Source of the DNA: a virus
Lineage: Duplodnaviria; Heunggongvirae; Uroviricota; Caudoviricetes
IMG/VR virus record: IMGVR_UViG_2648501338_000008
DNA: 11,021 bases
Strand: one strand, 5' to 3'
A model generated the notes under the pieces. It saw only the letters and a program-made list of their open reading frames with translations. It made no database searches and had not been told where the DNA came from. Shown here piece by piece: positions 7,152-11,021 of the stretch (its first letter is position 1; each line of letters opens with the position of its first letter). The translations under genes were made by a program, and so were the position numbers.

Positions 7152-7478
7152 TCATAACACCGTCGGACAACGCAAATCGTAAATCAGCACGGACACAGAA
7201 AACGGCAGCTCCCCCTGAACCAGGTCTTCCCGCTCAGCAAGATCCGGATTCCGGTACAGCATCCCGGTCAGTCGCATGGCAGCCCCCTTCATCCGGGTTA
7301 ATGCCTCGCCCGGGATCAGCTCACCGTCCTCACGAATCACTTTATCCCGGCTACCCTGAATGTAGGCCAGCAGCACGGCGGTAGCCTGACGAACCTTGTC
7401 CATCAGCATGTCATCATCCGCGTCATGGTCAACACGCAGATGTGCCTTGATCTCTTCCAGTGTCAGTAATGCCGTCAT
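7152..7478 (-). CDS. gp6-like head-tail connector protein, 108 aa
   Basis: N-terminus MTALLTLEEIKAHLRVDHDADDDML matches the gp6-like connector signature (TLEE-K-HLRID-DDDD). AGGAGG sits 8 nt upstream. The ATG at 7478..7476 overlaps the stop of the upstream 915-aa ORF (ATGA). Confidence 0.75.
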   Translation of the reverse strand: MTALLTLEEIKAHLRVDHDADDDMLMDKVRQATAVLLAYIQGSRDKVIREDGELIPGEALTRMKGAAMRLTGMLYRNPDLAEREDLVQGELPFSVSVLIYDLRCPTVL

Positions 7479-10222
7479 TTTCCGCCTCCTGCATCCCGTC
7501 CACGTTTGGCAGCCAGGGTCCAGCCTGATGAATGAGCTTCTCCGGGTTTATCACCGGTCATACTGTTGCAGTGCCACAGCGAGCCCCCCCACGTCACCGT
7601 ATCACCGGGGTGGTAGGTTTCACCGGCTCTGAACACACCGCGGTAGAGCATCACCGGCAGGGAAAATGTTTTTTCCGTACGCTGGCCACTGCTCTGCCGG
7701 ACCACCACAGTGAACGACCGTTCGCCGGTCATGCTGACGTCAATATCGGCCACCCCGTCAACCAGGCATTCCCATCCCCGCATCCCGTGCGTTTTTTCAT
7801 ACGCCCGCCAGAGTCCGCCCTGGTGTGTGGCATACGTGCCCCGGGGAAAGGATTTTTGATCGTCAATGGCGGGGATTATTTCCAGTGCCGTGGCATCACG
7901 CCCGTCCTGCGGAGCCGGCAGGGCTCTCACCGCATCCAGAACAGCCTTCTGCAGAACATCGGGATCATAGTCACGACCATCACGCGGAACAGGAATATGG
8001 CTTACCGCCTCTTTCACCATCTGTTCAAGCATCGGACGCACATCATCGGGGGTAATACTTTTGCCGTCCGCCGGTACCGGAATATTCGCGACCGCATCAT
8101 TCACCGCCTTCTGCAGTACTTCCGGATCGTAATCACGACCATCACGCGGAACAGGAATATGGCTTACCGCCTCTTTCACCATCTGCTCAAGCATCGGACG
8201 CACATCATCGGGGGTAATACTTTTGCCGTCCGCCGGTACCGGAATATTCGCAACCGCATCATTCACCGCCTGCTTCAGTACTTCCGGATCGTAATCACGA
8301 CCATCACGCGGAACAGGAATATGGCTTACCGCCTCCTTCACCATCTGTTCAAGCATCGGACGCACATCATCGGGGGTAATACTTTTGCCGTCCGCCGGTA
8401 CCGGAATATTCGCAACCGCATCATTCACCGCCTGCTGCAGTACATCCGGATCATAATCACGACCATCACGCGGAACAGGAATATGGCTTACCGCCTCCTT
8501 CACCATCTGTTCAAGCATCGGACGCACATCATCGGGGGTAATACTTTTGCCGTCCGCCGGTACCGGAATATTCGCAACCGCATCATTCACCGCCTGCTGC
8601 AGTACATCCGGATCATAATCACGACCATCACGCGGTACCGGAATGGCCCCCACAGCATCATCCACCATCGCCTGCAGAACCGGACGCACCTCATCCACCG
8701 TCACATGCTTCTGTAATACCGCCGACAGGGAAGTCAGTTTCTCTTCAAACGCTTGTGCCTGCGAGGCCATCTTCCCCTCAAATGTGCGCTGTAAATCCGC
8801 CAGCACCGTGGAGAATTCTTCGCCCAGTGCACGAATAATGGACAGTTCCCGTTCCGTCATTTTCGCAGTATCCCCCCTGAACATCGCTTTCACCGCATCA
8901 TGCTCTGTTTCACTGATTGCCTTATTACCGTCAGATGCGCCGTCAGGCAGCTGTGATGAAACTGTTTTCCCGGCAGACGCGAACGGATCCTCACGGGCAT
9001 CACGACGGGACAGCGCCTCCAGACTGTAGTTCTGCTGCTGAAGATACAGTGCATCACCGCCGGCAAGGGGCGGCAGGTTCTCACGTTTACGGGCCTCATT
9101 GGGCGTGAGAAGCGTATTTTTCACCGAATCACCCAGCGTTTTCATGCGACGCTCACTGTCCATTCTCAGCAGCGTGGTGACATCAAACTCCGTACTCTCG
9201 TTTTCCCCCGTTTCCAGCGCCTCATCCAGTAACAGCTCAATGGACTCAATCAGCGTCTGCAGACACTGGGAATAATACTGCTGCTCCAGCGCCTCCACGT
9301 TGTCACTGGAAGGCGGCTGGCCAACGCCAATCTTGTAGGCCGGGACACGGAACACCGAACAGACAATTTCAGCCGTCATCTTCAGTTGTTCCACCGTCTG
9401 CGCATCCACAGGTGAAAACGTCGTGGGGTTATATTTCGCCCCGTTGCTCAGAATGGCCGTTTTCCCCGCATTTTCGCCGGTATACCAGCTGTCCCAGTTG
9501 CTCTTCAGTTTTTTCGCATTTTCTTCCGTAATACTGCCGGGGATCTCAATCACCCCGGACGGCCTGCCGCCATTTCTGAAAAAAGACGTCGAATTTTCCT
9601 GAATATGATGCCCCTGCGTGGCCGCCAGCCCGGCGGCATACACCGGCGGCAATCCTATAAGCGGATGAAAAAAACAGTTAAACCGGTCGTGGATCACTTC
9701 CCGGGCAGGCACCGTCACCGCCTCCGTGATCCCGCAGTTCCGGTCCGGCGTGATGCGGTAGAACACCTCGCCGTCATCCGCCACCAGAGGTTCAACCCGG
9801 CTCCAGTCCAGAATACGCAGTTCTTTGATCTGCCCCCGGGCATTACGGATTTTCAGCACCACCGTATTGCCATGACGCAGTTTGGCGTTCAGCCACAGTT
9901 CAAAAAACTGGATGCGGTTCTGCTGGGCGTTGGGACGACGACAGAGGCGGGCAATATCCCCCCGGCGCGTTTCCCTGCGTATCCCATGCGCATCCGTCTG
10001 CATAAGACGCAGCCGCATTTTGGCGATATCCTGGGATATCAGCGAAATACAAGAAAACACCGCATGAAAGGAGAGGACACCTTCAGGATCGGCTTTCACG
10101 CCCTGCTGCCAGGCGCCGGAAAAAGGCTCAGCCACCGCCTGAAACAGGCTGGTCCAGCCCACCTCTCTTACATCACGTCCTGATTTCTGGTTTTTTCGGG
10201 TTCGCCGCAAAAGGTTCCACAT
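7475..10222 (-). CDS. Portal-domain protein with a long C-terminal extension, 915 aa: HK97-family portal-like core (about aa 1-400), about five tandem 54-aa repeats, and a C-terminal carbohydrate-binding-like domain
   Basis: Core has portal family motifs as I recall them: FFRNGGRPSGVIEIPGSITEENAKKLKSNWDSWYTGENAGKTAILSNGAKY and SPVDAQTVEQLKMTAEIVCSVFRVPAYKIG (compare FF-NGA-PSGvL ... sG-N-GK-avL ... DaQ-LE-rkf--eeIa--F-VP). ATG at 10222..10220 with GGAG about 8 nt upstream. No in-frame stop anywhere in the ORF. Size and C-terminal content are atypical for a portal. Confidence 0.6.
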   Translation of the reverse strand: MWNLLRRTRKNQKSGRDVREVGWTSLFQAVAEPFSGAWQQGVKADPEGVLSFHAVFSCISLISQDIAKMRLRLMQTDAHGIRRETRRGDIARLCRRPNAQQNRIQFFELWLNAKLRHGNTVVLKIRNARGQIKELRILDWSRVEPLVADDGEVFYRITPDRNCGITEAVTVPAREVIHDRFNCFFHPLIGLPPVYAAGLAATQGHHIQENSTSFFRNGGRPSGVIEIPGSITEENAKKLKSNWDSWYTGENAGKTAILSNGAKYNPTTFSPVDAQTVEQLKMTAEIVCSVFRVPAYKIGVGQPPSSDNVEALEQQYYSQCLQTLIESIELLLDEALETGENESTEFDVTTLLRMDSERRMKTLGDSVKNTLLTPNEARKRENLPPLAGGDALYLQQQNYSLEALSRRDAREDPFASAGKTVSSQLPDGASDGNKAISETEHDAVKAMFRGDTAKMTERELSIIRALGEEFSTVLADLQRTFEGKMASQAQAFEEKLTSLSAVLQKHVTVDEVRPVLQAMVDDAVGAIPVPRDGRDYDPDVLQQAVNDAVANIPVPADGKSITPDDVRPMLEQMVKEAVSHIPVPRDGRDYDPDVLQQAVNDAVANIPVPADGKSITPDDVRPMLEQMVKEAVSHIPVPRDGRDYDPEVLKQAVNDAVANIPVPADGKSITPDDVRPMLEQMVKEAVSHIPVPRDGRDYDPEVLQKAVNDAVANIPVPADGKSITPDDVRPMLEQMVKEAVSHIPVPRDGRDYDPDVLQKAVLDAVRALPAPQDGRDATALEIIPAIDDQKSFPRGTYATHQGGLWRAYEKTHGMRGWECLVDGVADIDVSMTGERSFTVVVRQSSGQRTEKTFSLPVMLYRGVFRAGETYHPGDTVTWGGSLWHCNSMTGDKPGEAHSSGWTLAAKRGRDAGGGK
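7890..8700. repeat. Direct tandem repeat array, 162-bp unit, about 4 near-identical copies plus degenerate flanking copies, in frame inside the 915-aa ORF
   Basis: The string tcacgaccatcacgcgg recurs at 7971, 8133, 8295, 8457 and 8619 (exact period 162). Copies starting at 8295 and 8457 appear identical; the others differ by a few substitutions. Encodes repeated VRPMLEQMVKEAVSHIPVPRDGRDYDPDVLQQAVNDAVANIPVPADGKSITPDD, itself two related 27-aa half-repeats. Confidence 0.9.
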
Positions 10223-10389
10223 TCGCCATGCTCCGCATCACGTTTCTTTTTCTGACCTGCCGGACGTCGCACCGTGATGTACTCCGCCTTCCCCAGGCGA
10301 ACCAGCACCTCCGCACACGGCTGTGCCACATCACGGATATCCCCGGCCCGGGCATCATGCGTGCCCTGCAGATATCGGATCTTTGCCAT
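10168..10389 (-). CDS. Hypothetical small protein (73 aa) in the capsid-portal intergenic region; uncertain
   Basis: ATG at 10389..10387 fills the 211-nt gap between the capsid stop and the portal-like start. Its last 55 nt overlap the portal-like ORF in another frame and its C-terminus is low-complexity (QKKKRDAEHGE), so it may be shorter or non-coding. Confidence 0.3.
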   Translation of the reverse strand: MAKIRYLQGTHDARAGDIRDVAQPCAEVLVRLGKAEYITVRRPAGQKKKRDAEHGECGTFCGEPEKTRNQDVM

Positions 10390-10417: not shown

Positions 10418-10433
10418 GTCCTCCTTATCAGAC

Positions 10434-11021
10434 TCAGCCGCCGGACGCACTGCCGTAGTTCACTCCGGTGATCACCGCCACCGCCGCAGTACGGCGACGA
10501 CGCCAGTTGATCCAGCGCTCCGCACGGATGGCCACGCTGCCGGTCTGGAACATGGAAACCAGCTCCACCGGGGACGGCGTGGTACTGTCGCCGGTCGGCT
10601 CAGACTGCATTTCCAGTGATGCCTCGCGGGACATATCCACTGCCACGCCGCCGTCATCCGCCAGATAAATATCCGGGGCATTCACCAGCACCAGCTGGTC
10701 ACCCACGTACTGGGAGACAATCACCGGCAGCCCCTGGAAGGAGCCACCCAGCAGGGTCATGTCCGGGTATTCCTTCTGACCCAGCGCATTTTTACGCATG
10801 GACAGTGCCAGGGCATTGGTGCTGGACATCAGCCAGACCGCACCGGTGGGCTGCAGGTTTGCTGCCACAAACTGTCCAAACGCAGCCTCTGCATCCGCAT
10901 CCGGGTTACCGGTTGATGCCGTGCCCTTCACATCATGGGTGATGGACGCCGGGGAGACATCTGCCACTGCGGCTTTTTTCGGGTCCACAAAGTCTGTATC
11001 CAGACGCGCCACCACCGCTTC
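10434..11021 (-). CDS. Major capsid protein, HK97-fold family, C-terminal 195 aa (gene continues beyond the high-coordinate edge)
   Basis: Frame is open to the window edge; the track start at 11015 is just the first in-window GTG. C-terminal motifs align with the HK97 gp5 C-terminus as recalled: GGSFQGLPVIVSQ vs MWGLPVVPTK, VAVDMSREAS vs VEVSREDR, and AIRAERW...AAVAVI vs the conserved E-E-R-l-A-l tail. Confidence 0.65.
   Translation of the reverse strand, partial: EAVVARLDTDFVDPKKAAVADVSPASITHDVKGTASTGNPDADAEAAFGQFVAANLQPTGAVWLMSSTNALALSMRKNALGQKEYPDMTLLGGSFQGLPVIVSQYVGDQLVLVNAPDIYLADDGGVAVDMSREASLEMQSEPTGDSTTPSPVELVSMFQTGSVAIRAERWINWRRRRTAAVAVITGVNYGSASGG

Follow-up and report, generated by a model that had tools for sequence, protein, structure and literature searches.

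The sequence analysed here is a stretch of 11,021 nucleotides (nt) from a tailed virus of the Caudoviricetes (IMG/VR record IMGVR_UViG_2648501338_000008), called the window in the following. The subject is its block of head genes, in which the major capsid gene precedes the portal gene, and a gene following the portal that is named X here. Every credible gene of the window is located on the minus strand. All coordinates refer to the whole window, so that the order of transcription runs from 11021 downwards. From the capsid gene to the head-tail connector gene, the following features were assigned.

10434..11021, minus strand: major capsid gene, C-terminal 195 codons, cut by the window end (PHROG 617 'major head protein', 2e-61)
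10168..10389, minus strand: small open reading frame (ORF) of 73 amino acids (aa), function unassigned (phrog_829, 2e-39)
7475..10222, minus strand: portal-like ORF of 915 aa (PF04860, 2.5e-79 over aa 54-382)
8861..10222, minus strand: portal gene proper, HK97 family, codons 1-454 of the 915-aa ORF (PF04860, TIGR01537)
8872..8877, minus strand: homopolymer of six G (G6; C6 on the plus strand), site of a 1-nt gap relative to phage BP-4795
7475..8860, minus strand: gene X, codons 455-915 and stop, fused here to the portal gene (stand-alone homologues downstream of the portal)
7944..8644, minus strand: tandem array in X, 162-nt (54-aa) repeats, 4.3 copies, 97% identity (Tandem Repeats Finder)
7478..7909, minus strand: conserved C-terminal domain of X, 144 aa, predicted all-beta (model with a predicted local distance difference test score, pLDDT, of 84)
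7152..7478, minus strand: gp6-like head-tail connector, adaptor Ad1 (PF05135, 8e-8; PHROG Ad1 phrog_40, 2e-30)

The order of capsid gene, small ORF, portal-like gene and gp6 at 7475..10434, as given in the original prediction, was confirmed by domain and profile matches, and its coordinates are exact. The 915-aa ORF clearly belongs to the HK97 portal family, with 267 bits against PF04860 (cut-off 39.1) and, for its first 455 aa, 350 bits against TIGR01537 portal_HK97 (1e-104, cut-off 112). The partial capsid ORF, represented by its last 195 codons only, gave a weak match to Pfam Phage_capsid (6e-5, 22.9 bits, cut-off 24.2). Its full-length relatives in BP-4795 and Escherichia coli C325 are 645-aa fusions of an HK97-type prohead protease, a scaffold and a capsid protein; both display the Peptidase_S78 domain of the HK97 prohead protease and the HK97-fold Phage_capsid domain, and the one of BP-4795 (ORF56) matches TIGR01554 and TIGR01543. 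The connector was recognised by PF05135 with 33.1 bits (cut-off 21.2) and is followed by a Phage_HCP gene. Within the block 7475..10434, no plus-strand ORF gave a credible family match, no tRNA was found, and promoter-like and terminator-like sites were not more frequent than in shuffled sequence. The 73-aa ORF did not match any Pfam or NCBIfam model.

Capsid gene before portal gene in related phages

In the canonical HK97 head module, the genes of the small and large terminase subunits (TerS and TerL) are followed by those of the portal (gp3), the protease (gp4), the capsid (gp5) and the connector (gp6). This order was not found in the closest relatives of the window. The annotation of BP-4795, of prophage Sp10 of E. 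coli Sakai and of the C325 prophage gives instead TerS, TerL, the 645-aa protease and major capsid protein (MCP), the 73-aa ORF, the portal and the connector. Upstream of the capsid gene, to which the protease is fused, only TerL and TerS are present, and a second portal gene was found in none of the three; an HNH-type nuclease gene is additionally present upstream of TerS in BP-4795 and Sp10. A head module permuted so that the capsid comes before the portal, which was one of two explanations offered in the original prediction, is therefore right as a description.

The other explanation was that the block of about 3 kb is a horizontally acquired insertion and that the real portal gene occupies its canonical HK97 place, ahead of the capsid gene. 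The deviation from textbook order would be in line with such an event, and a locus of Symbiopectobacterium purcellii indicates that recombination at the boundary of the module can happen. It is contradicted by the absence of a second portal upstream of the capsid gene in BP-4795, Sp10 and C325, by the same order being kept in about 50 species of three proteobacterial classes, and by the overlapping stop and start codons which join the genes. The GC content of 7475..10433 (0.564) is close to that of the rest of the window (0.576), and there is therefore no compositional sign of foreign origin; the per-gene GC contents at third codon positions (GC3) overlap, and codon usage did not give any signal either. 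An acquired insertion is refuted by this evidence and retains next to no probability.

In the locus of S. purcellii (L253, 506..6461), a module in canonical order (TerL, portal, S78 protease, capsid, gp6) precedes a remnant of 54 aa from the X C-terminal domain and a second gp6. Its sequence suggests a scar left by recombination between modules of the canonical and the permuted type.

Over its full length (coverage 100%), the window is 96.9-97.8% identical in nucleotide sequence to lambdoid prophages of enterohaemorrhagic E. coli (EHEC) and to long-tailed Shiga toxin (Stx) phages, while C325 is 99.1% identical to positions 7000..11021. The values for BP-4795 (genus Marienburgvirus of the International Committee on Taxonomy of Viruses, ICTV), Sp10 and the long-tailed Stx phages 1717, 2851 and YYZ-2008 are 97-98% over 11 kb. 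With BP-4795 and Sp10, full synteny was observed in addition from the capsid to the tape measure, which identifies the window as EHEC lambdoid or Marienburgvirus-type. Content and order are the same in this group, namely protease and MCP, 73-aa ORF, portal, X, Ad1 connector, head closure, gp10 and gp17, and onward the tail tube with an immunoglobulin (Ig) domain, the G/T chaperones and the tape measure.

The stretch from capsid to connector was detected in 1,251 of 5,426 complete E. coli genomes, and the portal/X junction at 2,909 places in 1,245 genomes of this set. The same order was found in Klebsiella, in a divergent E. coli prophage and in Pantoea, as well as in two cultured phages, Salmonella phage FSL SP-016 and Rhizobium phage RHph_X2_26. 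A survey in which one genome per GTDB species was scanned returned 53 loci, which were annotated locally by phmmer with the proteins of the window and of BP-4795 as queries. These loci belong, among others, to Enterobacterales, Pseudomonas, Marinobacter, Haliea, Delftia, Variovorax, Paraburkholderia and Pseudoduganella, and also to Rhizobium, Mesorhizobium, Phyllobacterium, Chelatococcus, Qipengyuania, Sphingosinicella and sphingomonads. Essentially every locus with enough flanking sequence showed TerL, protease and capsid (either fused or split into about 200 and 460 aa), portal and X, with a recognisable gp6 usually next. About 50 species of Gamma-, Beta- and Alphaproteobacteria share the order; the small ORF is absent outside enteric bacteria. 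A profile scan of viral contigs with a diverse alignment returned almost only close relatives from E. coli.

The capsid-before-portal order is thus already known, in that the head genes of a well-studied prophage group are normally arranged and annotated in this way. The expectation that either explanation of the order would be unusual did not hold, since a described phage group has this order as its rule. The group is among the most abundant prophage types of pathogenic E. coli, and GenBank annotations of long standing show the arrangement directly. Regarding Sakai prophages Sp6, Sp9, Sp10 and Sp12, among which only Sp10 was inspected here, it has been reported that the head region is organised slightly differently from that of lambda (Asadulghani et al., 2009; PMC2669165).

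The module resembles that of HK97 by its TIGR01537 portal, its Peptidase_S78 protease, its HK97-fold capsid and its proteins of the gp6 connector and gp10 families, and also by a scaffold which is part of the capsid polypeptide and not a separate gene. It differs from HK97 in that protease and capsid precede the portal, in that both are usually one protein of about 645 aa, and by the extra conserved gene X and, in enteric bacteria, the small ORF, which HK97 lacks. The fixed order proposed for this module would start with an optional HNH gene, followed by TerS, TerL, the prohead protease-scaffold-capsid (usually one polypeptide), the small ORF (in enteric bacteria only), portal, X and gp6, and would continue past the connector with head closure, gp10, gp17 and tail tube. 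The head genes form one co-directional late operon. The portal/X (8855..8864) and X/gp6 (7473..7482) junctions consist of the same decamer AAAATGACGG, in which an ATG overlaps a TGA. Such overlapping or abutting stops and starts (ATGA at both junctions) suggest translational coupling. Because of this putative coupling, the relative order of capsid and portal would be irrelevant to assembly, and the permutation may represent a neutral, anciently fixed rearrangement of the HK97-type module.

Portal and gene X in the 915-aa ORF

The portal-like gene was considered as a single gene in the original prediction, which missed that it is a fusion of two, the portal gene and X. A portal of the HK97 family is expected to be a single-domain protein of about 400-480 aa with no large C-terminal extension; the ORF of the window is 915 aa long, and the excess of 461 aa corresponds to X. 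In BP-4795, the same region is occupied by two ORFs, ORF58 (454 aa, portal) and ORF59 (461 aa), which overlap by ATGA. Alignment with BP-4795 revealed a single gap of 1 nt, with CAGGGGGAT in BP-4795 and CAGGGGGGAT in the window. When one G is removed from the latter, a 454-aa portal is obtained, which ends in AMFRGILRK and whose TGA overlaps the ATG of X. The window has kept both the out-of-frame TGA and the ATG of X (8860..8858), and the G6 run lies 11 nt upstream of this ATG, at the position of a Shine-Dalgarno sequence. The block appears as 3 kb with one oversized gene of 915 aa because the extra G joins the reading frames of the 454-aa portal and the 461-aa X.

Stand-alone forms of both proteins are widespread. 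The portal has 454 aa in BP-4795 and Sp10, and 443-484 aa in most relatives from other genera. Directly after it, a stand-alone X of 167-581 aa is encoded in Klebsiella, Pantoea, FSL SP-016, Sp10, Pseudomonas, Burkholderiales and Rhizobiales, and all stand-alone X proteins inspected start with M(N/T)ERE(L/M)S. In Klebsiella, a TAA stands directly before the ATG in the frame of X, and X must therefore initiate on its own there. The portal domain is absent from 148 of the 150 best representatives among the X-family clusters. In Sp10 the pair is split (ECs_1974 and ECs_1975), and packaging of this prophage and its transfer to E. coli K-12 have been demonstrated experimentally (PMC2669165). From these sequence comparisons, it is more likely that the two-gene state is ancestral and functional, and that the fused allele is derived and was passed on within a clade.

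The reverse was also considered, namely that the 915-aa ORF is a native long portal with a C-terminal extension and that the two-ORF versions are frameshifted pseudogenes. Several records are in favour of it. The profile of PHROG 2271 (859 positions, 'portal protein') represents the fused form, and the X-encoding ORF is labelled 'portal protein (pseudogene)' in the records Stx2a_WGPS4 and WGPS8. Fused copies are common, at 38 of 105 in IMG/VR and mostly with an intact downstream frame, and the allele is present in C325 and in the inducible phage 2851. Fusions which apparently arose independently are known from a Sphingosinicella locus and from a further cluster of the X family. However, the two genes are separate in every relative outside E. 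coli with the exception of this Sphingosinicella locus, the X-family representatives almost always lack the portal domain, and the active phages Sp10 and BP-4795 carry the split form. Moreover, X has retained a start codon of its own, an ATG, behind a G-rich, Shine-Dalgarno-like run, and in Klebsiella a stop codon stands immediately before that ATG. A native long portal is consequently regarded as very unlikely.

The Sphingosinicella locus, from a metagenome-assembled genome (MAG; L256, 4258..6270), encodes a portal ORF of 670 aa without any separate X, apparently an independent portal-X fusion. The second case is cluster P0192 (1,237 aa), which is also independently fused.

The state of the G run was followed in IMG/VR by exact-pattern scans of the junction, from which genuine copies only were counted. 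All 76 copies with five G (G5) stop at the ATGA, while 41 copies with G6 are read through. In a tree made from 775 nt of flanking sequence of 105 copies, about three changes between G5 and G6 are needed, and only one haplotype is mixed. From these few changes, G6 is a heritable, clade-restricted allele. A hypermutable hot spot or phase switch at this run was rejected: short flanks seemed to be mixed, but the 775-nt flanks require only about three changes.

The same data bear on the possibility that the G6 run is a homopolymer error of sequencing or assembly and that the real genome has two ORFs. Single-base errors in homopolymers are frequent with some technologies, and a second 1-nt frameshift is found in the tape-measure gene of the window. 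On the other hand, G6 also occurs in the complete genome of C325, in phage 2851 and in other complete RefSeq genomes with a single portal coding sequence, and the G state follows the phylogeny of the flanks. An error at this site is thus highly improbable.

Programmed ribosomal frameshifting, similar to that of lambda gpG/gpGT, was evaluated as a third way of joining portal and X, in which G6 would hard-wire a minor product. It is suggested by the end of the portal gene in BP-4795 (CTG AAA AAA TGA), where a -1 slip would enter the open frame of X. The A run is not conserved, though: GCGAAAATGA or GAGAAAATGA is found there in the window and in most E. coli haplotypes. The TAA before the ATG of X in Klebsiella makes a fusion product impossible there, and in several other genera the portal/X overlap differs in length or is absent. 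No conserved slippery heptamer with an open downstream frame was found at the junction in the E. coli copies and in Klebsiella. Programmed -1 frameshifting at portal/X was rejected on the basis of the unconserved A6 run and the in-frame stop, and is scarcely credible.

Taken together, the block is best explained as the portal region that natively belongs to a distinct head module of HK97-like type, in which the two-gene state is ancestral and the fused allele derived. A probability of about 85% is given to this explanation, jointly with the view that X represents a large, conserved and uncharacterised family of putative structural proteins. A few points weigh against it. The frequency of the fused allele and its mostly intact frame mean that the fusion is tolerated and could itself be functional. 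The prophage of the window may be degraded or defective, or its sequence may contain an error: its tape-measure gene is frameshifted into an ORF of 797 aa (2092..4485) and an overlapping one of 307 aa (1242..2165), both on the minus strand, whereas C325 and BP-4795 have a single ORF of 1,080 aa, of which the window reaches 797 codons before the stop. The change, located near 2098, is a 1-nt insertion inside a small complex substitution relative to both C325 and BP-4795. Because of this frameshift, the function of the window's own portal-X fusion cannot be assumed. Finally, no explicit published account of the TerL-capsid-portal permutation was found beyond the one sentence on the Sakai prophages in PMC2669165, so that the statement that the order is already known rests mostly on deposited annotations.

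What is called the 'portal protein' gene in this group thus corresponds to two genes, and the labels 'portal pseudogene' or 'portal protein' on the second ORF are probably wrong, since the two-ORF state is ancestral and present in active phages. Calls of prophage integrity which score the split as a defect are probably wrong as well. A related idea, that the 'D' (defective) portal scores of Sp6, Sp9 and Sp12 (PMC2669165) reflect the mere split, was not supported, as Sp10 is split too and was scored '+'.

Family, architecture and possible roles of gene X

The shortest form of X (245 aa) was used as phmmer query against 1.84 billion cluster representatives (clusters at 50% identity). This search returned 5,633 clusters at E<=1e-3, 459 of them at E<=1e-30. 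The majority, of 210-600 aa, stand alone and align with the repeats and the C-terminal domain. X scores below the cut-off of every curated Pfam and NCBIfam model. PHROGs label it 'portal protein', a name which presumably stems from the fused form. The family thus amounts to more than 5,000 clusters, is conserved beside the portal gene in bacteria ranging from Rhizobium to E. coli, varies in repeat number and ends in a tip that is predicted to be chitin-binding-like.

Three parts can be distinguished in the protein. The N-terminus is a predicted helix of about 47 residues. The middle part is made of helix-loop units with the motif IPVPxDG(R/K)D, which correspond to the 162-nt tandem array. The lengths of intact X in the prophage copies of IMG/VR mostly step by 54 aa (245, 299, 353, 407, 461, 515 and 569), and the array therefore seems to behave as a variable-number repeat. 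The X of the window (461 aa) has four extra 54-aa repeats compared with the shortest form; the protein measures 407 aa in Sp10 and 245 aa in some O157 copies. An AlphaFold2 model of the whole 461-aa protein reached a pLDDT of 43 and is informative for secondary structure only.

In 31 of the 150 family representatives and in a Variovorax locus, the helix-loop units are replaced by collagen GXY repeats, which suggests an elongated, possibly trimeric stalk. The X of the window itself has helix-loop repeats and no G-X-Y runs, and it did not match Pfam Collagen. In the Variovorax locus (strain Variovorax sp. JS1663; L237, 520..6513), collagen-repeat ORFs extend over about 4.6 kb behind the portal and end in the C-terminal domain of X. 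They would amount to a giant collagen-rich X, possibly split into several ORFs by simple ORF calling.

The C-terminal domain is the third part. Its last 45 residues or so are predicted to adopt a fold similar to CBM5/12 chitin-binding modules, that is a small three-stranded beta fold with exposed aromatics, as in the chitin-binding domains of chitinases. The CBM5/12 Pfam match of the window's X is below the cut-off (18.6 versus 26.2 bits), while the homologue P0185 is above it with 28.6 bits. The nearest predicted viral structures to the domain are collagen-repeat proteins with ChiC_BD tips. For the first 90 residues or so, a beta sub-domain, no clear structural match was obtained.

Several fibrous proteins of phages and related particles are available for comparison: the collagen-like capsid binder gp12 of SPP1, the head fibres of phi29, the fibritin whiskers of T4, and the head spikes of the Rhodobacter capsulatus gene transfer agent (RcGTA). 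X resembles them in architecture, with its N-terminal helix, variable repetitive stalk and globular C-terminal domain with a CBM5/12-like end. No match in sequence or fold was found between X and any of them. X is unlike them in that its C-terminal domain is the most conserved part and in that it is repeatedly fused to the C-terminus of the portal. A likeness to the P22 portal was also considered, as the C-terminus of the latter has a long helical extension, and the predicted helix of about 47 residues would come directly after the portal crown in the fused form of X. The P22 barrel is an integral part of portals of the P22 family, whereas X is a separate gene in most genomes. X further differs from the barrel by its tandem repeats and beta domain, and it belongs with an HK97-family portal.

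Among the possible roles, that of an elongated, probably trimeric fibre attached by its N-terminus at the portal or neck vertex is put forward tentatively, at somewhat less than even odds. The length of such a fibre would follow the number of 54-aa repeats, and the conserved binding domain, predicted as CBM5/12-like, would be located at its tip. This proposal meets several difficulties. The C-terminus of the portal faces the capsid interior in solved portals of the HK97 type, and the repeated fusion of X at this end argues against an external fibre. The C-terminal domain, as the most conserved part of X (about 50% identical from Rhizobiales to E. coli), is unlike receptor-binding tips; its conservation suggests a conserved target. 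Literature searches for virion proteomics or a structure of X found none.

An internal protein anchored to the portal is a rather unlikely alternative, and a capsid decoration or head fibre is unlikely. A broader version of the internal reading, in which X and the permuted TerL-capsid-portal order would define an unrecognised, widespread HK97-like lineage and X would be an internal appendage of variable length on the crown side of the portal, is considered quite improbable. It would account for the fusion to the portal C-terminus being repeatedly tolerated, because X would then sit on the crown, and thus interior, side. If it were true, X could have a role in organising the end of the packaged DNA, in the control of head length or in genome delivery.

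Elongated heads, about 44 x 95 nm in size, have been described for particles attributed to the Sakai lambdoid prophages (PMC2669165). Salmonella phage PhiESI, which is 97% identical to FSL SP-016 over 51% of the genome, also has an elongated head (about 40 x 89 nm). The related particles for which electron microscopy was found have elongated heads; PhiESI may share this module, and a tie of head shape to X is conceivable.

Neighbouring genes and small features

Downstream of the connector, the late genes continue without change of strand. They were assigned as follows.

6791..7141, minus strand: head closure (head completion) protein, next gene of the neck module (PF05521, 6e-18)
6348..6794, minus strand: HK97 gp10-like neck/tail protein (PF04883, 1e-9)
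6007..6351, minus strand: gp17-like protein (domain search)
5223..6077, minus strand: tail tube with Ig domain (domain search)
4843..5217 and 4538..4819, minus strand: G and T tail chaperones (domain search)
2092..4485, minus strand: tape measure (from the annotation of relatives, without Pfam scan)

The Ig-like domain of the tail tube is C-terminal (Ig_2 / I-set, about 1e-7). The mechanical start of this gene, a GTG at 6077, overlaps the gp17-like gene, and the annotated homologues begin about 45 codons later.

Homologues of the 73-aa ORF, with 51-58 aa, were found at the same position between capsid and portal in about 20 enterobacterial loci. In E. coli, the ORF overlaps the portal start by 55 nt (10168..10222 in the window), while the homologues of 51-58 aa in Klebsiella, Pantoea and other enteric bacteria end at or near the portal start. 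From this comparison, either the E. coli ORF would have a C-terminal extension or the portal start would be called too far upstream.

In the E. coli C325 prophage (L261, 14094..16143), the gene of antiterminator Q and two tRNA genes are directly followed by TerS. Unlike in BP-4795 and Sp10, neither a lysis cassette nor an HNH gene is located between the tRNAs and TerS, and this prophage has probably lost its lysis genes.

The spacer of 44 nt between the capsid stop (10434) and the start of the small ORF (10389) contains a GC-rich hairpin, GGGAGGC-GTGC-GCCTCCC, at 10400..10417 on the minus strand. An AAGGAGG motif precedes it, and a T run is lacking. A role in RNA stability or attenuation behind the highly expressed capsid gene is conceivable.

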